The notes under the pieces were generated by a model. The model ran no database searches and was not told where the DNA came from. It worked only from the letters and a program-made list of their open reading frames with translations. DNA of 63,255 nt, the filler included. It is 5 parts of 5 records of this genome, joined end to end, with 100 filler letters (N's around TTAATTAATTAA, not from the genome) between each part and the next. Parts side by side here need not be neighbours in the genome. Positions count along the whole stretch, not along the records: positions 1 to 13,581 come from SRR20825019_2484; 4 more parts are not named here. One strand, written 5' to 3'. How positions within the stretch are numbered: position 1 is the stretch's first letter; every line of letters begins with the position of its first letter. The translations under genes and the position numbers were made by a program. This document shows, piece after piece, positions 1 through 14,068 of the stretch.

Positions 1-231
1 CGCCCCGACCGCGCCATACATGCTGACCAGCGCACATGTTGCCCAGATCAGACCGGCTTCGGGCGGCAACCCGATCAGGCTCATGATGGGGGACAGCAGG
101 TCGGATGCAAAGGCAACCGCGCCGAATTCATCGGCAATCCGCACAATGATCATGACGGGTAACATGACCTTGATCAGTGTGATGAACAAACGCTGGCTGC
201 GGTTTAGCAAATTCAGGAAATAGCGATGCAT
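1..231 (-). CDS. Nucleoside-recognition (Gate) domain membrane protein, 3' end truncated at window edge
   Basis: Manual translation from ATG 231: MHRYFLNLLNRSQRLFITLIKVMLPVMIIVRIADEFG...LSPIMSLIGLPPEAGLIWAT; hydrophobic, with the L.P.M...GLP motif; higher GC than the island that follows. Confidence 0.7.
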   Translation of the reverse strand, partial: MHRYFLNLLNRSQRLFITLIKVMLPVMIIVRIADEFGAVAFASDLLSPIMSLIGLPPEAGLIWATCALVSMYGAVGA

Positions 232-613
232 GGGGCGCGAGGTTCCGGGCTTCTTGGGTGGTACGAAGGGCATATGTGGGGCAGTCATTTAACGATGCGC
301 ATCCTCGCACAGTCGATATATTATTGTGCGGCGAAATCACGTGTTTCCGTGCAATAATAAAGCGTACTTTTATCATACCGCGCTTCGGAGTTGCAGATAT
401 TGGCCGATCTTGACCGTATCGATACCAAAATACTTGGGATATTGCAGATGTCCTTTTCCAAAGATCGTCGAAAAACTAGTAATTTACTCACCGATTTCGA
501 CGGACTCTGAACATTTTTTCGGTGATCTTTGATCATTTCTAACTGGGGCACCTCATTCCATTGTTTCTTATTTGGAACAAGTGGAAATGGTGTCTGTTCG
601 TATTCGGGCATTT

Positions 614-684
614 GATTATTCTATGATACCATAGGTAATCGGTCATTTAACTAAGGCTTGTTTTTTTATAACCATTTGGTTGTC
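614..684. promoter_or_regulatory. Inverted repeats upstream of the recombinase, candidate res subsites
   Basis: GATTATTCTATG-ATAC-CATAGGTAATC (614-640) and AACCA-TT-TGGTT (671-682) directly upstream of the serine recombinase ATG. Confidence 0.35.
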
Positions 685-692
685 GTAATAAA

Positions 693-1601
693 ATGGCGAA
701 AATTGGGTATGCAAGGGTTTCTACTCAGGAACAGTCAATAGAAGGTCAGATTGATATGTTGGTTGAAGCCGGTTGCACTAAAATTTTTCAAGAGAAGGTT
801 TCAGGTATCCGGTGGGATCGCCCAGAGCTGGACAAAGCACTTGCGGCTCTTAAGTCAGGTGATGAATTTGTCGTGTACAAGTTAGATCGGCTAGGTCGTT
901 CGGTCCTGGATTTGCTTAATTTAATTTTCAAGTTGACGGATGAGGGGAAGCACTTCGTGAGTCTCTCAGATGCAATTGATACCTCAAGCCCGCAGGGAAA
1001 GTTTACACTTCATATGCTTGGAGCTGTGGCAGAGTTCGAGAGATCGCTTATTGTACAGAGGACTCGGGTTGGTCTGGCTAAGGCTAGAAAAGCCGGTCGG
1101 ATAGGTGGAAACCCCAAACTAAAGGCTCGAGATCCGGAATCGTTGAGGTTGCTGAGTGAAAGACTAAAGATCAATTATTTTGAGAAGATCAATAAGTCGG
1201 CTCGTATTTGGCTCCCTATTGTTAGAAAGCATAGGCCATCTAAAAAATGGTCTATCGTGACCAAGATGGTCAATGTTGAACAAAAAAAACAAAATGAAGA
1301 ACTTTGGACAGAGAAACGGCTGAAGCGGGCAGTTAAGCATTTCATTAAAGAGGGAATGCTGGATGCGGCAGTTCTTGAAAGAGCCCCGAGAGAGGAGGGC
1401 GAAGGTCCGTCAGGCGCTACACTGCTTGTTGCTGGCTTGGTATCTGCAAAGCCTAATATAACGCTGTTGGAGCTAAAGAAGCATCTCGATGCGTCGTCGA
1501 TGTCACCCAAGAGAAGTCGGGACGGGTGGGCTCTCTCATCGGTCCGTCAAGAGGTGATGAAGGCACTTGATGCGGGGCTTCTCGTGAGGTGGAAAGCTTA
1601 A
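693..1601 (+). CDS. Serine recombinase (resolvase/invertase family) with long C-terminal extension
   Basis: GYARVST (catalytic Ser), VYKLDRLGRS, AEFERSLIVQRTRVGL; the C-terminal extension resembles alphaproteobacterial plasmid recombinases. Confidence 0.93.
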   Translation: MAKIGYARVSTQEQSIEGQIDMLVEAGCTKIFQEKVSGIRWDRPELDKALAALKSGDEFVVYKLDRLGRSVLDLLNLIFKLTDEGKHFVSLSDAIDTSSPQGKFTLHMLGAVAEFERSLIVQRTRVGLAKARKAGRIGGNPKLKARDPESLRLLSERLKINYFEKINKSARIWLPIVRKHRPSKKWSIVTKMVNVEQKKQNEELWTEKRLKRAVKHFIKEGMLDAAVLERAPREEGEGPSGATLLVAGLVSAKPNITLLELKKHLDASSMSPKRSRDGWALSSVRQEVMKALDAGLLVRWKA

Positions 1602-1886
1602 GGCTTTCGCCGCGTGGGGTATCAGAAGATGCGAACTTGTTAGTTAAATCAGTTAGTTAGGCTTTGTTGTGGTCGTGCAATATGACAATGCTCTGCTCCA
1701 GTGCTCAAAATGAGGGCAATTCTCTCGGAGAGGAAAATGCCAAACGTTTACAACCGATCAACTAAGCCTGCTTTTCCAGCATCGGCACACACCTCAGTTC
1801 AGGTAAGACTGAATTTGTGATTAATTAAATTAATAAAAAATACGCATTTTTTTGTTGATCCGGATTCCGGAACTTTAGTACAAGCT

Positions 1887-1947
1887 TTCTTGTGAGCTGC
1901 GGGAGCGTTTCCCTCACTTCGGTGAGAAAACCCTGCGGTCAAAGGAA
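1887..1947 (+). ncRNA. Putative structured RNA upstream of the Abi-like gene (candidate antitoxin or leader)
   Basis: Long hairpin capped by CTCAC-TTCG-GTGAG (cUUCGg tetraloop, 1913-1926); lower stem GCTGCGGG(1896-1903)/CCTGCGGT(1932-1939) needs G-U pairs, which favours the + strand; AT-rich promoter-like region with TTGATC at 1855. Confidence 0.55.
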
Positions 1948-1948
1948 T

Positions 1949-1988
1949 AGGAGCGGGTGGCCCTTGTGGTTGCGCCGCTCTTCTTTTT
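1949..1988 (+). terminator. Intrinsic terminator/attenuator between the structured RNA and the Abi gene
   Basis: GAGCGG(1951-1956)/CCGCTC(1975-1980) stem with an upper GTGGCC/GGTTGC stem, followed by TTCTTTTT. Confidence 0.75.
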
Positions 1989-2068
1989 GGGTATCCTTTA
2001 CTACATTAGCTTGCATTAAAGTTGAACTTCTGCTGACTTGTTATCGGAATTGCAACAAGGTCAGCCCC

Positions 2069-2815
2069 GTGAATTTCGAACGCCGCAGCTCAAGATACGA
2101 CATCGACAGAACCGGACAGCCTTTTCAGATTTCGGACAAACCCGACATGGTCGCATTTCTGTCCGAACCGAGATTCCGTGTATATTGTGTCGAAGCGAAG
2201 GGTGATCCCGACCTTGCATTTCGCCTGTATAGATGGAATATCGTGCTGAGCGAGAGTCTGCTAATGCCGTTTCATTTTGTTGAAGTTGGGGTCAGAAATG
2301 CCATGTCCCAACTGCTTTATGATCGCACTGGCGCCAACTGGCCAATGCTGGCACAAGACAAAAAACACTGGCCAAAAGGCCTCAATGGTAATCCGGTTCC
2401 AGCGCTGCATCACAAAGTTCAAGCTGAAATTGAGAAAACGCGCGAAAAACTCGCCAAGCGTAAACGCAGTCTGGAACGTGTCACGCCTGACTGTGTCATT
2501 TCGCAGCTGACATTCGGCTTTTGGGTCAAACTGCTCTCGAGTGATTTTAAGAAATCACTTTGGACCGGGGGAGTGCGAAAACCCGTCTTTCGTCACGCTC
2601 CAGATCATGTGGATCGTGAAGAAGCCTATGCTGCACTTGATGAGCTACGCATCATGCGCAACCGCTTGGCACACCATGAGATCATCTTTACCAAAGGACC
2701 AACCAAAGTATATGAGCGGATCGAAGAGGTTTGCGGTTGGCTTAATCCTGACATCGCACATTTAATCCGGACAACATCTGATTTCCGGAAAGTCCATGGC
2801 GGGCGCCCCACTTAA
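2069..2815 (+). CDS. Abi-like (AbiD/AbiF, Abi_2-type) HEPN RNase
   Basis: LSEPRF..Y....LY.WN..LS....EVGVRNA N-terminal motif, QLTFGFW, and HEPN RxxxxH motif RNRLAHHE. Start moved to GTG 2069 (AAGG at 2057-2060) because the ORF-track start at 1892 runs through the RNA and terminator. Confidence 0.85.
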   Translation: MNFERRSSRYDIDRTGQPFQISDKPDMVAFLSEPRFRVYCVEAKGDPDLAFRLYRWNIVLSESLLMPFHFVEVGVRNAMSQLLYDRTGANWPMLAQDKKHWPKGLNGNPVPALHHKVQAEIEKTREKLAKRKRSLERVTPDCVISQLTFGFWVKLLSSDFKKSLWTGGVRKPVFRHAPDHVDREEAYAALDELRIMRNRLAHHEIIFTKGPTKVYERIEEVCGWLNPDIAHLIRTTSDFRKVHGGRPT

Positions 2816-4014
2816 CACGCCAATTCGTCCTTCGCGAGCAGGTGAGGCAAATGCTCTTTGACCAACCTATGCGTCAACTGTTCCCCGCGCTTTGATAGCT
2901 TTTCAATCCAGACATCCGGCATGGCCGAAAAGTCTGTTGGATATCCGAACACATCTTCACGCGAGACAAAACCCTCCTCATCACATAACCCAGCTTGGTC
3001 CTTCATCCCAAGGTAAGGCATCGCGAACGCCTTAAGCTGACCTGCGGCACGTAGATCAAACAGACGCTTGGTTGCAAAATTCTGGGCTCGGTCGTGGATG
3101 GTTGTGAACGCACTGGCCATTCTTGCCAACATGAACTGGTTTGGAGAATCAAACCTAAGCCCGTAACCCGCGCGACAGCAAATAATGGTATCAATTTTCT
3201 GAGCATTGAGGCTGACACTTGGGTCTCGATCTGGCCACAGAGGCGCCAAGCCCAAGTTATCGTAGACACCACCATCCGTTAGCGTGACACGTTCTTCGCG
3301 ACGCGTACCGTCCCGTTTCTCAAATGCCAATGTTTCATCGAGCGCAGGCAACAAAAGTGGATAGGCAGCTGACGCAGCCACACCGTGCGACACTTTGAGA
3401 TTGTCATCACAAACGCGCCCCAAACGCCAAGAACCACTGTCTCTGTTTGAAAAGTAGAACGCCGAACCCGTCCTCAAGTCTGCAGCATTGGCGATAAAAA
3501 GCGGTCCATCTTTCGGCAAGTCACGAAATTTCCTGCCGCCAAAAACGTCATCGTCAAGTACGCGTCGAAGGATCGTGGTACGACTTGCATAACGTCTCAG
3601 AGGTGCGCGAACAGCGCCAAGCGCCTGAAGCCTAAGTCCGGGCAAAACCCAGGAAATCCCTCGCACGACCACGGCAAACATCATTAGAAAGATATTCACG
3701 CCCAGCAAAAGGAGCGAGCAGATGAATGCGTTTAATCCCTCTAGGCTTGTGAAGGCCTTCTTCACACTTGGCCCCACCAGACCGGCTCTCAGAAAGTCAC
3801 GCGTCTTCTTTTCAAATTGCTCGAATGACCCTTGATGAGTCGCATACAGAGCGCCGACGACACTGCCACCAGAAACTGTCGATATGACACCTACCTTCTC
3901 AAGCACACCAAGATCATGCAATGCACGTAGACATCCGAGGTGAAAAGCAATCGCGCGAGATCCTCCTCCAGACAATGCCAATCCGATCGTCTCGGGCGCT
4001 TCCTTTCTCGACAT
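2812..4014 (-). CDS. Patatin-like phospholipase with an internal transmembrane segment
   Basis: ALSGGGSRA oxyanion loop, STVSGGS nucleophile Ser, DGGVYDNLG catalytic Asp; hydrophobic insert LNAFICSLLLLGVNIFLMMFAVVV; AGGAG RBS. Confidence 0.92.
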   Translation of the reverse strand: MSRKEAPETIGLALSGGGSRAIAFHLGCLRALHDLGVLEKVGVISTVSGGSVVGALYATHQGSFEQFEKKTRDFLRAGLVGPSVKKAFTSLEGLNAFICSLLLLGVNIFLMMFAVVVRGISWVLPGLRLQALGAVRAPLRRYASRTTILRRVLDDDVFGGRKFRDLPKDGPLFIANAADLRTGSAFYFSNRDSGSWRLGRVCDDNLKVSHGVAASAAYPLLLPALDETLAFEKRDGTRREERVTLTDGGVYDNLGLAPLWPDRDPSVSLNAQKIDTIICCRAGYGLRFDSPNQFMLARMASAFTTIHDRAQNFATKRLFDLRAAGQLKAFAMPYLGMKDQAGLCDEEGFVSREDVFGYPTDFSAMPDVWIEKLSKRGEQLTHRLVKEHLPHLLAKDELAC

Positions 4015-4031
4015 AATGGTCTACAGCTCCT

Positions 4032-6302
4032 TCAGCAGGAAAATTGCTCAAGTCTGGAGGCTTCTTCTCCGACGAAGATAACGCGAATATTCTCTTCACC
4101 GACGATCAGCATCAAACAAGGAAGTCGGTCCATATCAAACAAACTGGCCAACCAATCCAGTTGCTCCATATCAAGTGCGCTGGGCGCAGTTCCCACCCCG
4201 TCAGGATGTGAGTGCCACTCGCCGACATATCTGATCTGCTTGCCTGACCGTTCGCGAACAGCATTTAGTTCAGCCTCGACACCATGCCGCCCCCGGGTGA
4301 ATCGACTTGGAGAACTCTGGCTATCCGAGGGTGCTGCAGAGGCGCCGACAATATGAATTGACTGGTGCAAGATATCGACGAGACCGGTCATATAGCCGCC
4401 AGTTTCGTTTGGCAGGTGCGCGGCACGTTGCTTCAACAAGTGGCTCTTCAGACCTTCGTCAACAGAAATGGTCCAACCGGATTGCGTCCGGAACTGCTCA
4501 ATTGGTGTAACATCAGGGATATCCACGCGCACACCACCACCTTCAGACATCGACCAAATCTTGATCACCGATACAGACTCATCAAGAGCGTGGTCCAGGC
4601 CATGCGAAATCAGGCCACTCAATGCCATAACGTTGCTTTCGGGAATCCTGCTGGTGATCGCCCGACACGCGCCAGTATATGTGTATTTTCCTGTCGGCGG
4701 CGCCATGTGATTTTTCAGTGCCCCGTCGCTTGCTACGATAGCGAGATATCTTGCTTCCAGATCACGCAAACGGATCGACCGATCACTTGGCTCAATCAGC
4801 AAGACGCCAGCAGTTCCGGCTGGGTTGAAAAACACACTGGCTCTTCTGGCTTTGCTTCGGTGATCAGATAAAAATCTGGCCGCACTCACAGACGCCGTTG
4901 CATCAATAACGATGTCTGCGAAATCCAAACACTCATCAATTTGCGTCCTCAGAGCAGGATCTTTGGTTTCGATATCCGCAACAATCGCCTTTGAGGTACA
5001 GCCTTGCAAAACACCAAACACTCTTTGCGCCGCAATATTGGCTTTGTGTTTACCAACATCGTCCCTGAGAGCGGTATGGCGCGCAAGGTTATGTGGCAAC
5101 AGAAGATCGTCATCTATAATCGAGAATTCGTATCCGCCTTGACGTGCGAGAACGTCAAGCACATGAGATCCGATGGCACCCGCGCCGACCACAACCACTT
5201 TGCGCAGTTCGCGCTCAGCTTTTCCTGACATTGTTGTCGCCAGTTCATGATCAAGCTCGAACTGTAACTCGCATGGTGCAAGGTCGACTGTTTCAAGAGC
5301 AGCTCTATTGCTTTCCTGCCGCCCAACGTTTTTCGTATAACCTACTTTGCTTCCATGCGCCTTATCTGCTGCGTAGGCTAAACCGAGATAAACAGCGATA
5401 TCCCCCGCTCGATGAGAGCCAATAAATGCCCGACGGTCGACGATCACCTCGTTCGTCGGTGATTGGATCGGAGTTTCTAATATAACAACAAATCGGCTAT
5501 TCAGTCTTTTAGCTGCTTCAGCACCACTAGCGAGCCAACTTGAGAGTTTGGCCGCAAGCGCTGTGCCCAAATCTCCGCCGGCCCGCGAAACCGTCTCAAT
5601 CAATTGGGTCAGGTTTCGTGGTGCATGGGTCATCCGCCGCATCGGCTGTTCAGGTAATCGATAGCTTACGATGCTCAATGAATTGCCATGAGAGGGCTCT
5701 GACGGAATTTCGCGCTCTTGGATCAGCCGAAAAACCGGCAAATCTGCATTGAGCGAAATTCCTACCAATTCTGTCTCTGAAACAGTCTCAAGCAACTTCC
5801 GATCAGTTATTAACGTTGCGACATTGCCGAACATGTTTGGATCAATCGGCTGCATGATGTCATGCAGCTCATTGTGCGCAGCACGCTTAAACCAGCTTAG
5901 AATCCGGCTCAGAAGTTCCGCCGGCGTCCAGGTTAGACGCGCGTCGGCCCAATGCCGATCATCAACACAAATCGCCCGAGGCAAACCTTCCGGTGTCACC
6001 AAGAGATGAGGCGTTTCAGGAAAATCGTCGCGCAGGACCCAAACAATCGGATGAGCATCTTCTTGACGAAATAAGATGGCCAATCGTTCAACGAGCCTGA
6101 ATGGGTAATGGCTTTTTTGTGGGCGGCCGGTTTCAAGGTCTATAACCACATATGTGCCATCATCATTCTGCCGCAGTTCAATCACTTGCGCAGCCTGCTC
6201 GGCATGCTTTGTGACATAGCGGATGAAAGCGCGTGCTGGATGGTTTTGAACGTCAGCTTCAGAAATCTTGGCGGCTTGGTCGAGCCAAGCGTCGAACTCC
6301 AT
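4032..6302 (-). CDS. Fused prokaryotic E2 - E1 (ThiF) - JAB protein (Cap2-Cap3-like)
   Basis: E2: FPETPHL...RAICV; E1: VVVGAGAIGS, DDDLLLPHNLARH, candidate catalytic Cys in YTGACRAIT; JAB: NETGG...YVGEWHSHP...PSALD. ATG 6302 overlaps the upstream TGA (TGATG). Confidence 0.92.
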   Translation of the reverse strand: MEFDAWLDQAAKISEADVQNHPARAFIRYVTKHAEQAAQVIELRQNDDGTYVVIDLETGRPQKSHYPFRLVERLAILFRQEDAHPIVWVLRDDFPETPHLLVTPEGLPRAICVDDRHWADARLTWTPAELLSRILSWFKRAAHNELHDIMQPIDPNMFGNVATLITDRKLLETVSETELVGISLNADLPVFRLIQEREIPSEPSHGNSLSIVSYRLPEQPMRRMTHAPRNLTQLIETVSRAGGDLGTALAAKLSSWLASGAEAAKRLNSRFVVILETPIQSPTNEVIVDRRAFIGSHRAGDIAVYLGLAYAADKAHGSKVGYTKNVGRQESNRAALETVDLAPCELQFELDHELATTMSGKAERELRKVVVVGAGAIGSHVLDVLARQGGYEFSIIDDDLLLPHNLARHTALRDDVGKHKANIAAQRVFGVLQGCTSKAIVADIETKDPALRTQIDECLDFADIVIDATASVSAARFLSDHRSKARRASVFFNPAGTAGVLLIEPSDRSIRLRDLEARYLAIVASDGALKNHMAPPTGKYTYTGACRAITSRIPESNVMALSGLISHGLDHALDESVSVIKIWSMSEGGGVRVDIPDVTPIEQFRTQSGWTISVDEGLKSHLLKQRAAHLPNETGGYMTGLVDILHQSIHIVGASAAPSDSQSSPSRFTRGRHGVEAELNAVRERSGKQIRYVGEWHSHPDGVGTAPSALDMEQLDWLASLFDMDRLPCLMLIVGEENIRVIFVGEEASRLEQFSC

Positions 6303-7432
6303 CAACCTGCCCTCGGTGTTGAGCCCCCAGCGCCAGACGAAAGCAATGACGCTGCGACGGTCATAGAAAGCCCGCGTTCTGAAATCGTCAGACTGAAAGG
6401 TTTGGGATTTGCCGATGATGGTTGCTCCATCGTGACAATAAATCTGCCATCCTTTTCGGCGCTCACAGCTCTGTGGTAGTTCGCGGCTTGCCGGTGCGGC
6501 GGCTGCACATCCGCATCTTCTTTACTACCACTCAGCGGAATCGGCTTTGAGGGCGAAACAATAAAGCTACCGTCTTCACGCTGCGTTTCATACAGCCACT
6601 TAGTCTCGTGAACCGGTTCAGTCTTGTCTTTCCCGATATCAGGACCGATCGACAGATAGGAGCAGTGATGCGGCAGCTTCAGCAGGTCCCAACGCAAGCG
6701 ATCATCATTCTTACGAGCACGTGTGATGTTGACGATATCTGACAAAGTGTTGTGCTTAACATCAGAGGCAATCAGGAACCGGCTTTCCTGACCATCAATT
6801 TTGAAAGTGGCATGCAGAACAACGGAGTCTTCGTTGCGTTCGATGACAGTGTTCTCGTCTTGACGCCACCCGAATGGGCTATGAACAAAAAATTCCACAC
6901 CTTCTGGGCCGTCACTGCTAAAGTCCGGCACCAACTTGCCGGCATCAACAATCAGGTGTTTTCGCTCTTCATAGTTGATGCCTTCGCGCTTCATCCAAGA
7001 CTTAAGGCGTTCGGGCAGAGAGAAAACGCGAACACCTGAGCCCTGACGCAATCGGTGTCGCGCTTCTTGCCGCACCAGCCGCGAGTCATCAGAAACACCT
7101 TCTTCAAGAATGGCTGCCGCGGGTACCCAGAGCTCGTCAATCTTAACCCGATCGCCGCCCTGATATTTCGCAGCTTGCTCGAGCCAGAAGAAATCCCCGA
7201 ACCCTTTGCAATGGTCCGAATCAATATGCGTGATGCACACCACGTCAAAAAAATTGCGCTTGGCGTCTTCGAGGTCTTTGCGCAACAGGGTGGGCAGATC
7301 GCAGCGTTTGTCGCCCGCTTCACCCGTTCGCATATTGGCAAAATCGATCAAAACTTTACGATCATCCGAGAGATCTATGCGGAGGGTGTCGGCGTTGCCG
7401 AGTGGGAAAAAAGTAACTTTCGCGTTTTTCAT
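6302..7432 (-). CDS. Metallo-beta-lactamase-fold hydrolase (ComEC/Rec2-like) ending in a flexible tail with terminal Gly
   Basis: FFPLGNADT, ITHIDSDH (HxDxDH), LKLPHHCS; C-terminus SSGAGGSTPRAG*. Confidence 0.88.
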   Translation of the reverse strand: MKNAKVTFFPLGNADTLRIDLSDDRKVLIDFANMRTGEAGDKRCDLPTLLRKDLEDAKRNFFDVVCITHIDSDHCKGFGDFFWLEQAAKYQGGDRVKIDELWVPAAAILEEGVSDDSRLVRQEARHRLRQGSGVRVFSLPERLKSWMKREGINYEERKHLIVDAGKLVPDFSSDGPEGVEFFVHSPFGWRQDENTVIERNEDSVVLHATFKIDGQESRFLIASDVKHNTLSDIVNITRARKNDDRLRWDLLKLPHHCSYLSIGPDIGKDKTEPVHETKWLYETQREDGSFIVSPSKPIPLSGSKEDADVQPPHRQAANYHRAVSAEKDGRFIVTMEQPSSANPKPFSLTISERGLSMTVAASLLSSGAGGSTPRAG

Positions 7433-7433
7433 G

Positions 7434-7541
7434 GTTCCTCGCTTCAGCGGCTTATCCGCTGGACAGTGTGTTGTCCGTATGTGCGAAGCAGGAACGATCC
7501 ACCTGAAGACATATCCCGGTTATCCGGTAGAGAAATTCAGG
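7434..7541 (-). promoter_or_regulatory. Structured 5' leader of the MBL operon: three-way junction covering the RBS plus an upstream hairpin
   Basis: Minus strand GTTCCT-GCTTC...GAAGC-G-AGGAAC closes hairpins GGACA/TGTCC and AGCGG/CCGCT; second domain CCTGAA...CCGG-ATAA-CCGG...TTCAGG. Confidence 0.55.
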
Positions 7542-7615
7542 AAAAGGCTACATTAAGCTATCCAATTCGCAGGTCACGGCACGGGTCATTCGATCGCGAG
7601 CCTGGGAGTTTTTGA

Positions 7616-7686
7616 TTGACCCTGACTCATTAATCAGTAAAGTAAGTATATGGATAAATAAACTTTGTCAATAAATAAACTATACT
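7616..7686. promoter_or_regulatory. Overlapping promoters for the divergent genes, with candidate WYL-regulator operator
   Basis: Perfect TTGACA on minus (7666-7671) flanked by direct repeats ATAAATAAACT (7654-7664, 7671-7681); inverted AGTATA(7645)/TATACT(7681); plus-strand TTGACC(7616)-16nt-TAAAGT. Confidence 0.55.
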
Positions 7687-7701
7687 CATATGGAGAATCT
7701 C

Positions 7702-8577
7702 ATGTCTGACATATCGAGCCGCCGCCCATGGGGCGTACAGCGTCGCCTGGAATTCATTGAGTTTCGACTATATTGGGAAGGACAAATTAACCGCGGCGAC
7801 ATCTCCGACACCTTTGGTGTATCAACACCACAGGCATCAACAGATCTGAGTGCTTATAGAGAGGTCGCACCAGAAAACTTGGTTTATGACTCTAGCCTCA
7901 AGGTTTACCGAGCGAGTGACCAGTTTGAACCGCAGTTAATAAAACCGGATGCCAATCAATACTTGTCTCAGTTGCGAACATTCAGTCGGGACAAAACATC
8001 CGATACTTGGCTAGGTGATATTCCAGACTTGGATGCGATGCCGATTCCGTTCCGCAAAGTTGAACCATCGATCCTGCGCACGGCCCTCACAGCAATTAAA
8101 GCCAAAAGATCATTAGAGATTTTTTATCATTCCATGAATGATGAATATCCGGAGCCGATGTGGCGCGCAATCAGCCCCCACGCTCTGGCATCAGATGGTC
8201 TTCGTTGGCACATCCGCGCACTTTGTCACCGTTCCCGCACATTCAAAGACTTCATTCTCTCGCGATGTAGAGATTGCAAACTGGCCGATGATGCGCTTGC
8301 TAAAGCCGACGACGATTGGCAATGGCGAGAGTTTTTGGAAGTCAAACTCATCCCCAATCCGAAGCTGTCAGCAGAGCAACAGAAAACCATCGCTATGGAT
8401 TATGAAATGCATGATGGCAAACGGGTAATGAGCATCCGAAAGGCACTATTCTACTACTTCAAAAAGCGGTTGCGCCTGGACATTGCAGAACAGGTTGATC
8501 ACCCCAAAGAAACACCAGTGATCGTCGAGAATTACGAGACATTGTTAAAAGAAGCGAAGTACCGTCAGGACGGTTAA
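7702..8577 (+). CDS. WYL-domain transcriptional regulator, CapW-like (wHTH-WYL-WCX)
   Basis: RRLEFIEFRLYWEGQINRGDISDTFGVSTPQASTDLSAY wHTH; RAISPHALASDGLRWHIRALC...FKDFILSR WYL; IAMDYEM WCX. GGAG precedes ATG 7702 (ORF track starts at 7690). Confidence 0.92.
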   Translation: MSDISSRRPWGVQRRLEFIEFRLYWEGQINRGDISDTFGVSTPQASTDLSAYREVAPENLVYDSSLKVYRASDQFEPQLIKPDANQYLSQLRTFSRDKTSDTWLGDIPDLDAMPIPFRKVEPSILRTALTAIKAKRSLEIFYHSMNDEYPEPMWRAISPHALASDGLRWHIRALCHRSRTFKDFILSRCRDCKLADDALAKADDDWQWREFLEVKLIPNPKLSAEQQKTIAMDYEMHDGKRVMSIRKALFYYFKKRLRLDIAEQVDHPKETPVIVENYETLLKEAKYRQDG

Positions 8578-8592
8578 CTTCGATACAGGACG

Positions 8593-9519
8593 TTGAACAC
8601 CATGAAGTCTGAAAAACGCCCAAGCTGGCAGCAGATCCGACAAAAATTTCCCAACAAGCTTTATCAACGCGTCTTTCCTATTTCCCCGATACTGGTAGCT
8701 CTGGAATGGTTTGCCGGACAGTATTTTTTTGTGACTGCACGGTGTTATTCATGCCGACTGTCATTTCAGGTTACTGCCGCAACACTTGCCTTGCTCGGTG
8801 CGTGGGGCATCTATCAAGAATATCAGTCTTCGCAAGAGGAACGCATTGGTCGCATGTGGCAGATTGCGACAAGCCCTGTGCCTGGAAACAGCGGCAAGAT
8901 TCCCGCGCTCGAATTTCTTCACCAACGCGGAGAACCCTTGGCTGGAATCGGTATCCCCAGATCTTGGTTAAAGGGCGTCAAGCTGGAAGGGGCGAATCTT
9001 GTGAACTCTAATTTGGCAGGTGCGAATCTTACCGAAGCCATTCTGCCCAAATCCAACTTCTACTATAGTAATCTCGAAGGAACAGATTTTCATTACGCCG
9101 TGCTGACAGATGCTGACTTTTCGAAAACGACTCTCAGGAGCACGGCTTTTGTTGGCGCTTCTTTAGGCAGAGCCGACTTTGCCGATATTTGGATCGATGG
9201 GATGTTCAATGAGGCCAATCTTACCGATGCTAATTTTAAAGACGCAAAATTTGATCGTGCGTTCTTTGATCTGTCATGTGCGAAGTCGGCAAACTTTACA
9301 AATGCCAACTTTGCGGGCTCTCAATGGATCACATTCAACGGCACGGACCTGTCCGGAGCAAATCTGACAAACAGCAAAGGCCTGTCTCAGCTTCAACTTG
9401 ATCAAGCGGGATGTGCGCACACGCCACCCAATCTGACGGGTACCGGCCTGACATGGTCCAAAGAGAAGATCTGTGATGCTGGAGAGCTGTCGGCATGTGA
9501 CAAGCTGGCCGACAATTAG
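8593..9519 (+). CDS. Pentapeptide-repeat protein with N-terminal hydrophobic segments
   Basis: Repeated A(N/D)(L/F)xx units (GANLVNSNLAGANLTEAIL..., ANLTDANFKDAKF); hydrophobic stretch LSFQVTAATLALLGAWGIY. Confidence 0.85.
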   Translation: MNTMKSEKRPSWQQIRQKFPNKLYQRVFPISPILVALEWFAGQYFFVTARCYSCRLSFQVTAATLALLGAWGIYQEYQSSQEERIGRMWQIATSPVPGNSGKIPALEFLHQRGEPLAGIGIPRSWLKGVKLEGANLVNSNLAGANLTEAILPKSNFYYSNLEGTDFHYAVLTDADFSKTTLRSTAFVGASLGRADFADIWIDGMFNEANLTDANFKDAKFDRAFFDLSCAKSANFTNANFAGSQWITFNGTDLSGANLTNSKGLSQLQLDQAGCAHTPPNLTGTGLTWSKEKICDAGELSACDKLADN

Positions 9520-9565
9520 TCATCTGCATTAGCCAATATGCAAGATTTATCCATAGGACGGCAGC

Positions 9566-10132
9566 ATGTCCCATTTTCTTGATCAACTATGTAAGTTTCT
9601 CATGCCGTTGCAATTTGCTTTCCTCAGAATTTTCACCTTCCTCATCATTGTCTCGACATCCATGCCATTGGCAGCGAAGGCTCAGGAACAAAAATGGGTC
9701 GCAGAAACATTTTCTCTCCTGAGCAACTTGATCGATGAGCAACGCATGATTCCGGTGAGCAATGAAAACGCACTCGACACTGAAATCCCGGGTGGCTTTG
9801 TGAAGCTGATTGTATCCCTTCCAGTGACTGTCCAGAACGTTGAAATTATCCCCCGACACACAAGTGTTATGTGTAGCTATCAGGCTGTTCGGGAGGGAAA
9901 TCGAATTCCCGTCACCTGTTACCGTATGCTTACACATGAGAAGTATGACTTTCGAATTTCTGCTAGGGTCTACGACCGACAGGGCGGCCTTGGCATTCCG
10001 GCCGATCGTCAGAAAAGCAACGGCGCACTTCAAGCCGATCACGCCAAAGAACTGCAGCTGGTGATTGAAAACGTCGAAGCCGTCGGAACAGTCGGCCGCC
10101 TCTGGTCGCGCACGCCGAACCACGAGAATTGA
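9566..10132 (+). CDS. Hypothetical exported protein
   Basis: Hydrophobic N-terminus ending in AKA-QEQ (signal-peptide-like); co-oriented with the previous two genes. Confidence 0.5.
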   Translation: MSHFLDQLCKFLMPLQFAFLRIFTFLIIVSTSMPLAAKAQEQKWVAETFSLLSNLIDEQRMIPVSNENALDTEIPGGFVKLIVSLPVTVQNVEIIPRHTSVMCSYQAVREGNRIPVTCYRMLTHEKYDFRISARVYDRQGGLGIPADRQKSNGALQADHAKELQLVIENVEAVGTVGRLWSRTPNHEN

Positions 10133-10252
10133 GTTACCGTCAGCTCACAATAAAACAAACTCAAGGTTAGTTGTTTTTGGGATGGGAAGAATAGTCCAGC
10201 TCATGTTCTAGTCGTGACAAACTCGTAGGCAGCACGTGCGCTTTTCTATTTC

Positions 10253-11632
10253 TTACTTTGTTTGAACTTGAGTGAGCTTAGATGCTCTACTCTCCAACGC
10301 ATCAAGATCATCTATGATCAACTGAATTTCGGCAATTTCTGCTTCTGAAACAGAATCCCATAGCTTCTGGGGCCGATCAATGAGTGACCATTTCAACGCA
10401 TGAAATCCGTTCCAAGCCAAACCCATCCAGCTCGCATAATTAGCGTTGAGCAGGTTCTGGGTCACATAAACCTTACCCGCATTCACTGCACTTGAAGTGC
10501 CATACCCGAGAGCGAGCATCGTGCGAAAGCGTGGTGACATCTTGCCAGGCATCGTATCCAGCAGCGTTTGCCCGAACATAGCATCATTTTTGGCAACCTG
10601 TTTGCCAACGTAAAGCGCACGCATAAGCGCTTCCATAATTGCCATTGGAACACTGGTGACAACGAACTGGCGAAAATCATAGCCTTTGACATACATCCAT
10701 TCTATCTGTCGGCCAAAATTTGAATCGCCCACCTGAATGCCTTCAAGCATTCGCAACAATCCCATGAAAGGTGCAGGCAGCCCCATTCCGCGGTTGCCAT
10801 TTGCCGACGGAGCATTAACATCCGAAAGCAAATGCCCAAGCATTCGACCGACCATCTGGAAGATATTTCCCTCCATTGGGCCACTTTTTCCGGGGATTGA
10901 TTTGATTTCACCATCCACAACGACCGTACAGGTCCCGCGGATCATATCGAGAACCCCGAAAATAATCCCCAATACAGGATCATGCGCCAGAGATCTCAGT
11001 CGATGATTAGTCGGATTAATAGTCTTGGGTGCGGCCCCGACCAATTGCGAAATTACAGACGCATCTGCTGAACCAATTTTGTAGATTTTGGCTAGTTCTG
11101 CACTCAGTTCTGGAGAAATCGCAGCATTGAAAGCGTTTTGAACCCACCGATTGAATATTCCGTCCACAGGGGTCTCAAAGGCAGTTGTCGGCTTTAATGG
11201 TGCTTTAACACAAAGCAGATCAAGCATCGCCGCGAACAGTCCGCATGAACATGCTATGGCATAGTCCAAAGCATCCAGATCATATTGACGGTTGAATGCC
11301 TCTATCTGACGACTAATCCGCTCTCCAACGGCACAAAGTTGTTCATCTGTCAGCAAGTCGGTGAGTTCAACGGGGCCTGCATATACTGTTTCAGCCTCGG
11401 CAAATATCTCGGAAATACTGGTTTGAATCCGAATATTTGGCTGAACCACAGTTTCGGACATCTCAATTGCCGAGATCTTCTCCCTATGTGCCGCCGTAAA
11501 ATCCGCCCCAAACCCCTCTAGAGCAAGCCGTGCGCTCTCAAGTTTGGCACCTATGGTCTGATGCCTATTTTCCAAGTTCAGCGATCTGTCTTGAAGCAGC
11601 TTTACGGCTTTGGCTTCCTTGTCACTGGCCAT
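10253..11632 (-). CDS. Hypothetical 459-aa membrane-associated protein with coiled-coil termini
   Basis: Long ORF; motifs HRLRSLAHDPVLGIIFG, GHLLSD..., GLPAPF, MYVKGYDFRQF; overlaps the upstream gene by 11 nt. Confidence 0.8.
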   Translation of the reverse strand: MASDKEAKAVKLLQDRSLNLENRHQTIGAKLESARLALEGFGADFTAAHREKISAIEMSETVVQPNIRIQTSISEIFAEAETVYAGPVELTDLLTDEQLCAVGERISRQIEAFNRQYDLDALDYAIACSCGLFAAMLDLLCVKAPLKPTTAFETPVDGIFNRWVQNAFNAAISPELSAELAKIYKIGSADASVISQLVGAAPKTINPTNHRLRSLAHDPVLGIIFGVLDMIRGTCTVVVDGEIKSIPGKSGPMEGNIFQMVGRMLGHLLSDVNAPSANGNRGMGLPAPFMGLLRMLEGIQVGDSNFGRQIEWMYVKGYDFRQFVVTSVPMAIMEALMRALYVGKQVAKNDAMFGQTLLDTMPGKMSPRFRTMLALGYGTSSAVNAGKVYVTQNLLNANYASWMGLAWNGFHALKWSLIDRPQKLWDSVSEAEIAEIQLIIDDLDALESRASKLTQVQTK

Positions 11633-12167
11633 TTGTAACGGCTTTCTCGGGGGTTGCTCCCTTGTCCGCCTTCTGCGTCAAAAGCTCAATAGCCATAGAA
11701 ATTTCTGCAATCTGCTTTTCAAAATACTCTGCATTTCCTAGCAAGGTCTTTTGAATGTCGTACAAACGCGCAATTGCTTCACGCAGGATGGCCAATCGCT
11801 TGGCTGTTCGCCTCTTCTTGGCAATTGCATAACCACCGATGCCAAGCAAGGCGATCGGTGCTGCAAGAACACCGATACCTGCGACCATTCCACCACCAAC
11901 CAAGCCACCGGCTGCGGCAAGACCCGATGTAATGCCTGAAGCCGATAGACCTGCGGTACCTAAAGCTGACAAGGCGAAGAAAGAGCCGGTTCCACCAACG
12001 CTGGCGCCAACAGCTGTTGCGACACCTTCTGTAATACCTGGATAATCTTTCTCCAAAGAGCCGAATATTTCCTTGATCTGTTGACTGGCGTCATCGCCAA
12101 GTGCTGCAACATCAATCTCAACCACTTCAGCAGGGGTTTCAGGAGAAGTATTAACAATTTCATTCAT
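11622..12167 (-). CDS. Glycine-zipper membrane protein with C-terminal coiled coil
   Basis: About 65-aa Gly/Ala-rich hydrophobic core (ALSALGTAGLSASGITSGLAAAGGLVGGGMVAGIGVLAAP) followed by KKRR and heptad helices; ATG 12167 preferred over TTG 12194. Confidence 0.8.
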   Translation of the reverse strand: MNEIVNTSPETPAEVVEIDVAALGDDASQQIKEIFGSLEKDYPGITEGVATAVGASVGGTGSFFALSALGTAGLSASGITSGLAAAGGLVGGGMVAGIGVLAAPIALLGIGGYAIAKKRRTAKRLAILREAIARLYDIQKTLLGNAEYFEKQIAEISMAIELLTQKADKGATPEKAVTNGQ

Positions 12168-12292
12168 GCTCTTTGTCTCGTCTGAGTGATGCAAAAATCT
12201 AATATGCTTGAACGCTCAACGAAAATAAAATGAAAATTGAATTTGTTTCTATACACTCAATTCTTGAGAGAGTTCACGTTGGGGGCCGACTG

Positions 12293-13294
12293 ATGAGAAA
12301 ACTTGACGAAACCGTACTAGAACTATGCGACATAGTCCTCACTTCGGACTCCGGAATAACGAGTAGGGTGGTTAGAAAACACACGGACAGCGATATTTCA
12401 CATGCAATGTTATACGTGCAGAATCACTCGCTGATTGACTCCACCGGCGACGGCGTTCACGCAAGCAACACGCAAAGAAACCTGTTCGCCGATGATTCAA
12501 GTGTATATGTCCTGCGCACACGTGCTCCACTAACCGACCTTCAAAAGCAATCTATCGTGACTTACGCGCGTACGCAGATTGGTACCAGCTACGCGAAGCT
12601 TCAGGCTGCCGCGGTTGCTCGTTTGAACCCTCTCAAACCAAGTACAACAAATTCGAGAAAACAATTCTGCTCGAGACTTGTGGCTCAAGCGTACGCTTAC
12701 GCAGGCATTGATTTGGTTGAAACCCCAGATTACTGCAGCCCTAACGACCTGAAATCCTCCCAATTATTAGAACCCGTTCCGACGGCCATTCGGACTGCAA
12801 CAGAAGCAGAAATAGCGTTTGCGAACACCTTTGACTCAACAAAACTGATGCAGGATACCTCCAATGCTTTGTTGACCAAAGCAAGGGAGAAAAGCGGCCA
12901 TATAGAAGCCATAAGTGACATTGACACACACCTCTTTCAACATCCAGCAGACGACCAGTTTATGACTGATGCCTTGAAAATCTCGGGATATTTGGGTGTC
13001 TGGCGTCATGACTATAAGGAAAACCCATGGCACTATGATCTCGATCTAATGTCAGAGATTGAGCACACTTCCGCGGTCGAGGAGTACTGCAAGAGCACAG
13101 TGAGCCAGCGTGATACAACTGATCGACTCCAGAAGAATAGAATTGGATACGTTCAATACTTCAGATCATCGAATCTTCAGTACTTCAAAGAATTAGCCGA
13201 ACTATACAAGTTACTTTCTGATCTTGACCGCAAACGCTTAACTGTAGCGCAAGCTTGGTTGTCACAGCTCCAAAATGACAAAAAAGAATCTTAA
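12293..13294 (+). CDS. Permuted papain-like NlpC/P60 amidase (YiiX/YaeF, C92) with helical C-terminal domain
   Basis: DIVLT...SDISHAMLYV (His) precedes KQFCSRLVAQAYAYAG (Cys); G-rich RBS before ATG 12293. Confidence 0.85.
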   Translation: MRKLDETVLELCDIVLTSDSGITSRVVRKHTDSDISHAMLYVQNHSLIDSTGDGVHASNTQRNLFADDSSVYVLRTRAPLTDLQKQSIVTYARTQIGTSYAKLQAAAVARLNPLKPSTTNSRKQFCSRLVAQAYAYAGIDLVETPDYCSPNDLKSSQLLEPVPTAIRTATEAEIAFANTFDSTKLMQDTSNALLTKAREKSGHIEAISDIDTHLFQHPADDQFMTDALKISGYLGVWRHDYKENPWHYDLDLMSEIEHTSAVEEYCKSTVSQRDTTDRLQKNRIGYVQYFRSSNLQYFKELAELYKLLSDLDRKRLTVAQAWLSQLQNDKKES

Positions 13295-13581
13295 ACCACA
13301 TATTTTTCAATGATTTGTACTGCTGGAATACTTGGACCCCTGCGACTGCAGTCGTAATTCGCTATGCGATTAAGTTTTCAACCTCTACGGAGGCTTCAGA
13401 GCATGTGGCGACAACCCATCACCGCACCCGCGCAAAGGCCGAAAAGATGGGAAAGGATGATACCTACCGGTAGTGACGAGAGATTCGTATTTAAGGCTGC
13501 TCGAAGTTTTAAGTTAACAGCGTTGCGTGTTCATTTTGTCCGGAAACAGTCATTAACGGACAAATTCACCCCCGAAACGAT

Positions 13582-13681
13582 NNNNNNNNNNNNNNNNNNN
13601 NNNNNNNNNNNNNNNNNNNNNNNNNTTAATTAATTAANNNNNNNNNNNNNNNNNNNNNNNNNNNNNNNNNNNNNNNNNNNN
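13582..13681. other. Artificial contig spacer
   Basis: N-run with TTAATTAATTAA (stops in all six frames). Confidence 0.99.
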
Positions 13682-14068
13682 GGTGAAAAGAACGCAGCGG
13701 AAAAGGCGCTCGACCTTATGGAGGAGCACAATCGCAACGCCCTCTACGTCGTCGAGGACGACCGGATCGCCGGTCTTGTCACCTATCAGGAACTGGCGGT
13801 CGCTGCCCGGGAAGAAGGCCGCACGGACCTTTCGGAAGTGCTCGTGACGGAAGTCCCCACGGTTTCGCGCGATACGCCGCTCAACGAGCTTTATGGTGCT
13901 GCAAGCGCCGGTTATCCCATAGCCGTTGCCGACAAGCGTGGCCGTCTTGCCGGGGTCATCGAACCGCAGGCGGTGTTTTCTCAGCTTTCAGGCGAGGAAA
14001 GCGAGGAGGTGGTCTCCACCACGGATGAAGCCGACGCCGGCGCCGCACAGAAAGGAGAACGCCAATGA
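13682..14068 (+). CDS. proV: Glycine betaine/proline ABC ATPase, C-terminal CBS part (5' truncated)
   Basis: CBS-like sequence directly upstream of, and overlapping, the proW start. Confidence 0.7.
   Translation, partial: GEKNAAEKALDLMEEHNRNALYVVEDDRIAGLVTYQELAVAAREEGRTDLSEVLVTEVPTVSRDTPLNELYGAASAGYPIAVADKRGRLAGVIEPQAVFSQLSGEESEEVVSTTDEADAGAAQKGERQ

Follow-up and report, generated by a model that had tools for sequence, protein, structure and literature searches.

Is the abi gene at 2069-2815 a gene on its own, or is it half of a two-component system whose other half is a small RNA encoded just upstream? The window analysed here is the whole stretch of 63,255 nucleotides, and all positions count along it. 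A sequence-only reading of 1850-2815 had proposed a promoter, a structured RNA, a terminator and an Abi-type gene in that order, the RNA neutralising or attenuating the encoded HEPN RNase as in type III toxin–antitoxin (TA) loci. AbiF-type HEPN RNases are, as of 2025, known as toxins neutralised by RNA and have been proposed as the ancestors of Cas13. We find all of the elements at or near where that reading had placed them, and we favour, at a probability of roughly 0.6, the interpretation that 1855-2815 is a two-component RNA–protein module in which the RNA is the type III-like antitoxin of an AbiF-like HEPN RNase. The features of the module are as follows.

1855-1884, plus strand: putative sigma70-type promoter of the RNA (-35 TTGATC at 1855-1860, 18-nt spacer, -10 TACAAG at 1879-1884)
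1890-1988, plus strand: predicted small RNA of about 99 nt, its start inferred from the -10 element and its end placed at the U-tract
1887-1947, plus strand: long irregular hairpin of 61 nt, made of a basal stem, a core stem, a GUUU/AAAC helix and an apical stem-loop
1897-1903/1932-1938, plus strand: core stem of 7 bp, with conserved G's immediately 5' and a C-run before the 3' strand
1907-1910/1928-1931, plus strand: GUUU/AAAC helix
1913-1926, plus strand: apical stem-loop CUCAC-UUCG-GUGAG, with a cUUCGg loop
1949-1988, plus strand: intrinsic terminator, a 14-bp interrupted GC-rich stem (1949-1982) followed by C-UUUUU (1983-1988)
2003-2036, plus strand: conserved block in the gap between terminator and gene, ACATTAGCTTGCA at 2003-2015 and TTCTGCTGA at 2028-2036, shared with the second RNA copy of locus L001
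2032-2065, plus strand: local hairpin predicted from the leader fold over the Shine-Dalgarno (SD) sequence of abi, with arms at 2032-2042/2054-2065, the 3' arm holding AAGG (2057-2060)
2069-2815, plus strand: abi gene, 248-aa Abi_2/AbiD-F-like HEPN protein, GTG start and TAA stop, 80 nt past the RNA
2657-2677, plus strand: HEPN catalytic motif R197-N-R-L-A-H202-H203 (R-x4-H)

The region 1800-1885 is AT-rich, as had been noted, and the candidate promoter within it aligns column by column with TTGACG-17-TACAAC and TTGACG-17-TAAAAC, which precede the two RNA copies of L001. A generic promoter scan did not flag 1855-1884 (1 site vs 1.1 expected) and was uninformative; its promoter and terminator counts were not above those of shuffled sequence. 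The minimum free energy (MFE) fold agrees with the hairpin of about 60 nt first drawn for 1887-1947, cUUCGg loop included (-23.9 kcal/mol, z = -2.37, with 4 of 200 shuffles equally good), and G1901 of its core stem pairs with U. For the entire 107-nt RNA z is -2.52 (4 of 200 shuffles equally good), and for the looser cut 1870-2000 it is -1.35 (14 of 200). Because folding energy alone is weak evidence, the case for the RNA rests on conservation. The description of the RNA as non-repetitive and about 100 nt long holds up, with one copy found by covariance-model search of the window and, in 1600-2200, no internal direct repeats beyond chance pairs of 8-13 nt.

Searches for relatives of the RNA covered the window and 80 homologue loci, 656,552 bases in all. 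The closest relative with DNA is L001, a metagenome-assembled genome of Sneathiella whose protein is 55 per cent identical. Its upstream region holds two tandem RNA copies about 300 nt apart (3490-3640 and 3790-3925), each preceded by a promoter and followed by a terminator of its own. Copy 2 retains the fold: one-sided changes in the core stem turn G-U into A-U, and the apical stem, CUCGC-GCAA-GCGAG, shows a compensatory change from A-U to G-C and carries another stable tetraloop. Copy 1 is rebuilt, with a longer apical part, and the tandem arrangement recalls the two abiF motifs of the C. difficile RNA RCd22 and the two RNAs per HEPN dimer.

A covariance model (R1) was made from the window and the two L001 copies only. 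Its best non-seed matches all lie directly upstream of abi homologues: L013 (E = 1.9e-5), L062 (0.0039), L066 (0.18) and L057 (0.26). A further model, R2, brought these loci to E-values of 1e-8 to 1e-12 and added L012 (6.2e-6), L040 (2.6e-4), L060 (0.0098) and L016 (0.12); with filters off it also found L027 and L049 (both about 1e-4) and L046 (0.025-0.057). Two plasmids gave non-seed matches at the equivalent place, Tistrella mobilis pTM3 (1e-8) and a 9-kb Psychrobacter plasmid (1.1e-5). The window's own match at 1886-1990 (113.5 bits with R1, 103.2 bits with R2) is by construction, since the window seeds both models. Beyond the window and L001 the RNA is thus found in eleven genome loci and two plasmids, next to homologues that are distant (about 30 per cent identical). 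It accompanies abi in fourteen other loci from four phyla. A hand-written descriptor (a 7-bp stem ending in GGG, a 3' strand starting CC, then [AU]CA and a terminator) gave eleven terminator-bearing matches in nine loci over both strands of the same roughly 656 kb; all eleven are immediately upstream of abi, and none is elsewhere. A more permissive descriptor returned 323 matches and was too noisy, though it exposed a second class of RNA.

The alignment of these RNAs (A8, sixteen rows), itself fitted to the model's structure, supports the structure by covariation. Paired cells make up 85.1 per cent, against 41-52 per cent when the partner is slid by one to three columns. Changes on both sides occur in 31 of the 37 pairs, including 13 of the 13 terminator pairs, and core-stem pairs show up to five pair types each. 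The covariation score is 0.610, against 0.176 for shuffled alignments, and 0 of 500 shuffles score as high. The sequence-only reading had named covariation across homologue upstream regions as a check, and the RNA does covary. Two of the rows, L066 3836-3900 (plus strand) and L012 3644-3720 (plus strand), match in the terminator only and are probably false, which leaves fourteen true rows. Bases kept in at least twelve of these are a pair of G's on the 5' side of the stem, the GG/CC closing pairs, one G ahead of the apical hairpin and the CCCC run. The hairpin architecture is shared by fourteen aligned members, and all members of the RNA class have a terminator after the hairpin. One further match, L009 7254-7348 (E = 0.007-0.029), was set aside: its core-stem columns are gaps and it sits at the end of a 589-aa open reading frame (ORF).

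The suggestion that this might be a new RNA family fared well. No family of Rfam 15, the abiF motif included, matches at the RNA in window positions 1500-3000 at E ≤ 10, and over the whole window only a tRNA reaches the gathering score. Rfam likewise has no match at the RNA in 12 and 14 related loci or, at E ≤ 10, in the upstream regions of L013 and L014. The RNA would therefore count as a new family, a statement that holds for that library. The literature searched, to which the 2025 AbiF paper and its supplements did not belong, yielded no earlier description of it. The abiF RNA motif (RF03085), reportedly described by Weinberg and colleagues in 2017, is said to be a small hairpin RNA conserved upstream of Abi_2-family genes; its size and architecture are unlike those of the window RNA.

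The RNA is co-oriented with abi in the window and in L001. In thirteen of the fourteen other loci with this class of RNA, which we call class 1a, it is divergent from abi, with its 5' end facing the gene (L012, L013, L016, L027, L040, L046, L049, L057, L060, L062, L066, L082 and L083); its strand is fixed there by the G-U pairs of the core stem and by the U-tracts. Sigma70-type promoters precede the RNA in divergent loci, spaced as in the window (L027 TTGAAT-17-TATAAT, L016 TTGACT-17-TAAAAT), and the start codon of abi falls within the RNA promoter or next to it (L027 TTGAAT-t-CAT...TATAAT; L016 TTGACT-t-CAT...TAAAAT). A sigma70-like promoter at a fixed distance and a terminator give the RNA a transcription unit of its own, and this holds for the window, L001 and the divergent loci alike. 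Because it is divergent in thirteen of fourteen, the RNA is, on this comparison of loci, a free-standing gene rather than only a leader, linked to abi independently of any leader role, and action in trans is favoured over attenuation. For the same reason the order RNA, terminator, toxin does not define the module. That order, to which the sequence-only reading had pointed, is real in the window and matches AbiF/RCd22 in the part of PMC12373285 available to us, but of the relatives only L001 keeps it.

The opposite orientation in the relatives is also why a history of inversion, or an invertible switch, was considered. A 16-nt inverted repeat (1871-1886/2008-2023, 88 per cent complementary) flanks the RNA gene, running from the -10 element to just beyond the terminator, and adjoins the resolvase gene upstream. 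An invertible segment is not supported, as the repeat leaves out the -35 element and has no counterpart around the L001 units.

Nearly all of the remaining homologue loci have some small RNA-like unit at the equivalent spot, and most other homologues carry small hairpin RNAs of a different kind. Counted without regard to class, a terminator-like hairpin stands on the minus strand in the first 250 nt upstream at 42 of 78 loci; among control windows the share is 5.6 per cent. What we call class 1b has the form GGC-N-UUGAGA, a GC-rich tetraloop hairpin, CCCCUCAUCG and a terminator, with strong TTGACA-17-TATAAT-like promoters ahead. A pattern search places it on the minus strand upstream in eighteen of the 80 loci (L003, L004, L007, L009, L010, L021, L033, L037, L041, L042, L045, L048, L050, L067, L073, L076, L077 and L079) and on the plus strand in none, with two matches elsewhere against 0.06 expected. 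L078 also appears to belong to this class, and L015 and L028 to a further variant. The likeness of class 1b to the window RNA rests on similarity by eye and on the pattern. With filters off, R2 matches ten of thirteen class-1b loci at the expected place and strand, at E-values of 0.015-4.6 and among noise that scores equally; since R2 recognises the class this weakly, homology to the window RNA is not established statistically.

Class 2 is a single hairpin of 35-47 nt, CCCGG..CUCUGCC..loop..GCAUGCG..CCGGGG, with a U-rich tail and its own promoter (TTGACG-17-CATATT in L014), about 40-130 nt upstream of the abi match on the minus strand. A pattern search finds it in 35 of 80 loci where 3.05 would be expected; the match in L040 is really a class-1a terminator. 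The class-2 loci are L002, L005, L008, L014, L017-L020, L023-L025, L030, L032, L034-L036, L039, L043, L044, L047, L051-L054, L056, L058, L059, L063, L064, L068-L070, L072 and L080. An actinobacterial variant reads CCCGGGAAUCACGGCGUACCGGCUUCGGCCAGGGAAACCCCCCGGGG. No Rfam family matches class 2 in fourteen related loci, or upstream in L014 at E ≤ 10. On an E. coli IncC plasmid (L081, CP042646.1), positions 1300-1470 of the minus strand show by eye a -10-like TATACT, then two hairpins, of which one is class-2-like, and a strong terminator; the unit is divergent from a homologue annotated as a hypothetical protein, and R2 does not match it.

The RNA class follows the protein tree, which establishes a linkage specific to protein clades: six labels require 14 changes, against 39.5 when shuffled, and 0 of 200 shuffles are as low. 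In a free quick tree the long branch of the window and L001 falls in the class-2 half. A constrained tree that puts the two with the class-1 half is better by 14.1 log-likelihood units (p = 0.786 in the approximately unbiased, AU, test). A constraint that held only the class-1a and class-1b rows together, shutting out the differently labelled L055 and L031, was rejected (AU p = 0.0186).

A mechanical ORF call runs for 307 aa from GTG 1892 and so traverses the RNA. Judging from the alignments, the true start of abi is GTG 2069 (248 aa), because the N-terminus MNFERR/MNFSRQ is common to homologues of 244-248 aa and the L001 frame opens just 15 nt before its ATG. The ORF is Abi_2-like, as first proposed; it ends at 2815 and includes RNRLAHH at 2657-2677, and the R-x4-6-H motif of HEPN enzymes stands in the last core helix (R197-NRLA-H202). 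R197, N198 and H202 are invariant in 60 aligned sequences, together with E72, R76 and N77; in the nine closest relatives R197, N198, R199, A201, H202, H203 and E204 are. Pfam Abi_2 (PF07751) matches residues 50-207 on profile positions 34-183 of 184 (E = 3.9e-5), and it reaches E ≤ 0.01 in 57 of the 60 aligned relatives (best 4.1e-12). In the PADLOC library, which has no curated cut-off, the best model is PD-T4-5 (PDLC04038; E = 5.8e-11, 40.2 bits, residues 26-213 on profile positions 9-211 of 309), with a weak match to AbiD (E = 1.7e-4). An exhaustive homologue search returned 3105 cluster representatives at E ≤ 1e-3 and just five at E ≤ 1e-30, which places the protein on a divergent twig within a large family. 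The closest relative, 92 per cent identical, carries the source name Thalassospira xiamenensis.

The AlphaFold2 model, made from 60 sequences, scores 94.9 for the predicted local distance difference test and 0.89 for the predicted template modelling (TM) score. Its top match in the PDB is 8VZ6_A, 'PbAbiF dimer bound to ncRNA' (probability 1.00, TM 0.57/0.49 over 272 columns, 13 per cent identity). The remaining PDB matches listed have TM scores of 0.23 or less, so this is the sole meaningful one. The AbiF kinship that had been suggested thus gains from the model, whose nearest solved structure is an AbiF bound to its non-coding RNA (ncRNA). A tblastn search finds homologues in 761 plasmid records. 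At the nucleotide level, 1600-2900 has no blastn match among plasmids. Several of the plasmid homologues are annotated 'CAAX protease' or 'CAAX amino protease', probably by confusion of names between the Abi (CPBP) protease family and the Abi proteins of abortive infection.

In a C. difficile prophage, a SigA promoter drives RCd22 (about 100-130 nt, with two abiF motifs and a terminator), and abiF follows; the short RNA predominates and read-through gives the mRNA. RCd22 neutralises the toxic AbiFCd by direct binding, in cis and in trans; toxicity requires R202 and H207, and deletion of RCd22 raised abiF mRNA 17-fold (all from the available part of PMC12373285). PbAbiF is described as a HEPN dimer with one ncRNA per monomer, in which unpaired RNA bases block the active site; the same reviews, as far as excerpted, present the CRISPR RNA (crRNA) of Cas13e as antitoxin and guide both, and the sequence upstream of lactococcal AbiF as essential to its antiphage effect (PMC12737573, PMC13064643). 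The window shares with these AbiF systems (PbAbiF-AbiFr, 8VZ6; AbiFCd-RCd22) a lone Abi_2/AbiD-F HEPN protein with R-x4-H, a modelled AbiF/AbiD-F fold and a setting of mobile elements and defence; with AbiFCd-RCd22 it also shares the series of promoter, structured ncRNA of about 100 nt, intrinsic terminator and gene. It differs in that its RNA is one long irregular hairpin and not one or two abiF hairpins of 33-37 nt, in that its protein has 248 residues against 297 in the 8VZ6 chain, and in that the relatives of its gene mostly have a divergent RNA, an arrangement we did not find in what we could consult on AbiF.

PD-T4-5 is a plasmid-borne E. coli gene, a distant relative of AbiF/D that defends against T4 by abortive infection (Vassallo et al. 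2022, PMC9519451, in part). It provides the best PADLOC model for the window protein, and its family is likewise common on plasmids; the comparison is by family hidden Markov model and by description, and that description, as far as available, has a single gene and mentions no RNA partner. Canonical type III systems have a repeat antitoxin (e.g. 36 nt × 5.5) that the toxin cuts, and serve abortive infection or plasmid maintenance (PMC13064643, PMC12373285, in the parts available). With ToxIN, AbiQ, CptIN and TenpIN the window has in common an RNA gene, a terminator and a gene for a toxic endoribonuclease, here a predicted one, which the RNA would bind and neutralise; their toxins have the ToxN/AbiQ fold and not HEPN. 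The adjacency of the two genes and a terminator that would limit the toxin are present in the window, as far as sequence goes, whereas thirteen of fourteen relatives are divergent instead. The kind of system is already known, an AbiF-type HEPN RNase with an RNA partner; what appears new is the RNA family, the pairing with a PD-T4-5-like protein and the mostly divergent order.

Because the published precedents fit, we read the window as an RNA antitoxin with a HEPN toxin, and the mechanism might run as follows. A constitutive promoter would make the RNA of about 99 nt, the conserved irregular hairpin followed by its intrinsic terminator, and the gene 80 nt downstream would supply the RNase, a 248-aa HEPN protein from the Abi_2/AbiD-F/PD-T4-5 lineage. 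If the window works as PbAbiF-AbiFr and AbiFCd-RCd22 do, the RNA would bind the HEPN dimer and block its composite R-x4-H active site, so that the cell tolerates an otherwise toxic enzyme. The strong terminator would set the ratio of RNA to protein, with RNA in excess, since transcription would get to abi by read-through alone or from a weak promoter that the gene itself has, and the hairpin over the ribosome-binding site of abi would damp translation further. In L001 a hairpin of different sequence abuts the SD at the equivalent place. A phage that stops host transcription, or degradation of the RNA, would shrink the RNA pool and free the longer-lived RNase, which would then cleave RNA and abort the infection or, on a mobile element, kill cells that lose the module.

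Several observations weigh against this interpretation. There is one close relative with DNA, L001, so the co-oriented layout and the SD hairpin are seen in two loci. The abiF motif RF03085 finds no match in window positions 1500-3000 at E ≤ 10, or at gathering score in the whole window or 26 related loci, so that it is the protein fold and the gene layout, and not homology of the RNAs, that carry the transfer of the AbiF mechanism. The Abi_2 match is borderline, 24.5 bits against a gathering cut-off of 25.6. The Foldseek E-value for 8VZ6 is just 0.13, and a sequence profile of the nine closest relatives, run against all PDB chains at E ≤ 10, retrieved no AbiF chain, which leaves the protein without profile-detectable homology in the PDB; YacP, at 0.42 in that search, was taken as noise. 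The RNA is single-copy and non-repetitive where type III antitoxins are tandem repeats, the two L001 copies being two transcription units and not an array, and it has no sign of the toxin-processed repeats of ToxI-type antitoxins. The overlap of RNA promoter and abi start in most relatives would equally suit a regulator of abi expression. We infer, finally, the ends and abundance of the RNA, its binding to the protein and neutralisation of it, the RNase activity, the toxicity and the defence.

Such a regulator would have the RNA, or its strong promoter, set the level of abi mRNA or protein by occlusion, interference or type I-like antisense pairing, without binding the protein. In the divergent loci an abi mRNA that had a leader would be antisense to the RNA, and in the window the 5' strand of the RNA stem (1893-1902) is perfectly complementary over 10 nt to codons 5-8 of abi (2083-2092), a pairing that the MFE fold of the read-through leader uses. 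The complementarity is absent from L001, where other complementary pairs are listed, and RNAduplex finds the RNA no better matched to the abi start region than shuffles are (z of -0.8 to -1.1 for the window and both L001 copies; 73, 104 and 73 of 500 shuffles as good). Conservation extends to the shape of the hairpin and to a few unpaired bases but not to complementarity with abi; the window and L001 keep the RNA on the strand of abi, with no cis-antisense overlap; and an RNA class that tracks the protein clade is expected of an RNA recognised by protein. We hold this account to be unlikely. It seems somewhat less likely still that the RNA is a cofactor that the RNase needs or is directed by, as a scaffold, activator, guide-like element or phage sensor, along the lines of the proposed transition from AbiF to Cas13. 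A dedicated and co-evolving partner would be equally expected there, and the dual role of the Cas13e crRNA and the essential sequence upstream of lactococcal AbiF (PMC12737573, PMC13064643, in part) speak for it. Against it, the RNA has no variable or spacer-like part and its sequence is fixed within a clade, and in both characterised AbiF systems, on the accounts available, the RNA neutralises toxicity.

A purely cis-acting leader, in which a riboswitch-like hairpin and terminator decide on read-through into abi while the short RNA does nothing in trans, we consider improbable. The terminator does stand between the promoter and abi, and the 80-nt gap has no good promoter: TTGCAT-17-TGACTT in the block at 2003-2036 is by eye a poor match, the block being possibly a weak promoter of abi's own or part of its leader. 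The 17-fold rise of abiF mRNA on deletion of RCd22 (PMC12373285, in part) would also fit, as would the alternative pairings of the sequence-only reading, both of which exist in the window (GUGAG 1892 with CUCAC 1913, and GGAGCG 1902 with the 3' arm of the terminator). Such pairings would imply a switch, but they are not conserved in L001; for the second, which would be the antiterminator, copy 2 has GGAUCA and cannot pair with the 3' arm of its terminator. L001 has two complete tandem units of promoter, RNA and terminator, and an RNA that is divergent from abi in thirteen of fourteen other loci cannot be its leader. Least credible, and very unlikely indeed, is that there is nothing special here: a chance hairpin with the terminator of the resolvase gene, or a short peptide gene. 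The resolvase gene does end at 1601 on the same strand, the folding z-scores are modest (-1.35 to -2.5), and the frame from GTG 1892 is open. The element, though, travels with abi and not with a resolvase in fourteen other loci of four phyla, and it covaries in the hairpin part of the alignment too, which argues against an artefact of similarity between terminators. No peptide is conserved: in L001 copy 1 the sequence GTG AGC TGA closes the frame at its third codon, and copy 2 lacks 1 nt that the window has.

Beyond the window, the neutralisation reading would extend the principle of neutralisation by RNA to a distant and very widespread PD-T4-5-like branch, occurring in Proteobacteria, Actinobacteria and further groups as well as on many plasmids, and it offers a concrete RNA candidate to go with a defence gene that current annotation treats as a lone 'Abi family' or hypothetical protein. 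The PD-T4-5/Abi_2-like branch numbers thousands of representatives, and plasmids of Klebsiella, Acinetobacter, Agrobacterium and other bacteria often carry it. More tentatively, the whole HEPN branch may carry a dedicated small RNA, of at least two to three classes that co-evolve with the protein and are absent from Rfam. Its usual layout would be back-to-back, with the RNA promoter overlapping the start of the RNase gene, and the window would be a rare flipped form that mimics the order RNA, terminator, toxin. In the literature examined, some of it in part, no divergent layout was found described for TA systems of RNA and protein (type III). If this holds, 'single-gene' Abi/PD-T4-5 defences would be two-component RNA–protein systems and several RNA families would await description. 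The varying orientation of the RNA makes a natural experiment on action in trans against leader effects, and annotation and cloning of 'single-gene' systems should take in the adjacent 100 nt or so.

The abi module lies in a region of low GC content, 46-52 per cent over 1-14,000 against 60 per cent beyond. This step at about 14 kb suggests that the left-hand 14 kb is probably a horizontally acquired island, which extends past the left end of the window. With the module it holds resolvase, patatin, E2/E1/JAB fusion, WYL regulator and BnzAB-like genes. The neighbouring genes are these.

693-1601, plus strand: serine recombinase (resolvase) gene, ending upstream of the RNA on the shared strand
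2812-4014, minus strand: patatin phospholipase gene
4032-6305, minus strand: 757-aa fusion of prokaryotic E2, ThiF-type E1 and JAB deubiquitinase domains
6302-7432, minus strand: 376-aa protein with partial LmuA/Avs1a-like N-terminal matches
7690-8577: WYL-domain regulator
8593-9519: pentapeptide-repeat protein
10253-11632, minus strand: BnzB-like gene (E = 7.3e-54)
11622-12194, minus strand: BnzA-like gene
12230-13294: C92/NlpC-P60 amidase

No cGAS/DncV-like nucleotidyltransferase (CD-NTase) was identified for 2812-7432. The LmuA/Avs1a-like, E2/E1/JAB fusion and patatin genes there form a three-gene cluster on the minus strand, which looks like a CBASS-like (cyclic-oligonucleotide-based antiphage signalling system) operon or another defence operon of ubiquitin-like conjugation, with a lipase effector. 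The genes at 7690-13294 appear to be further content of the defence island.

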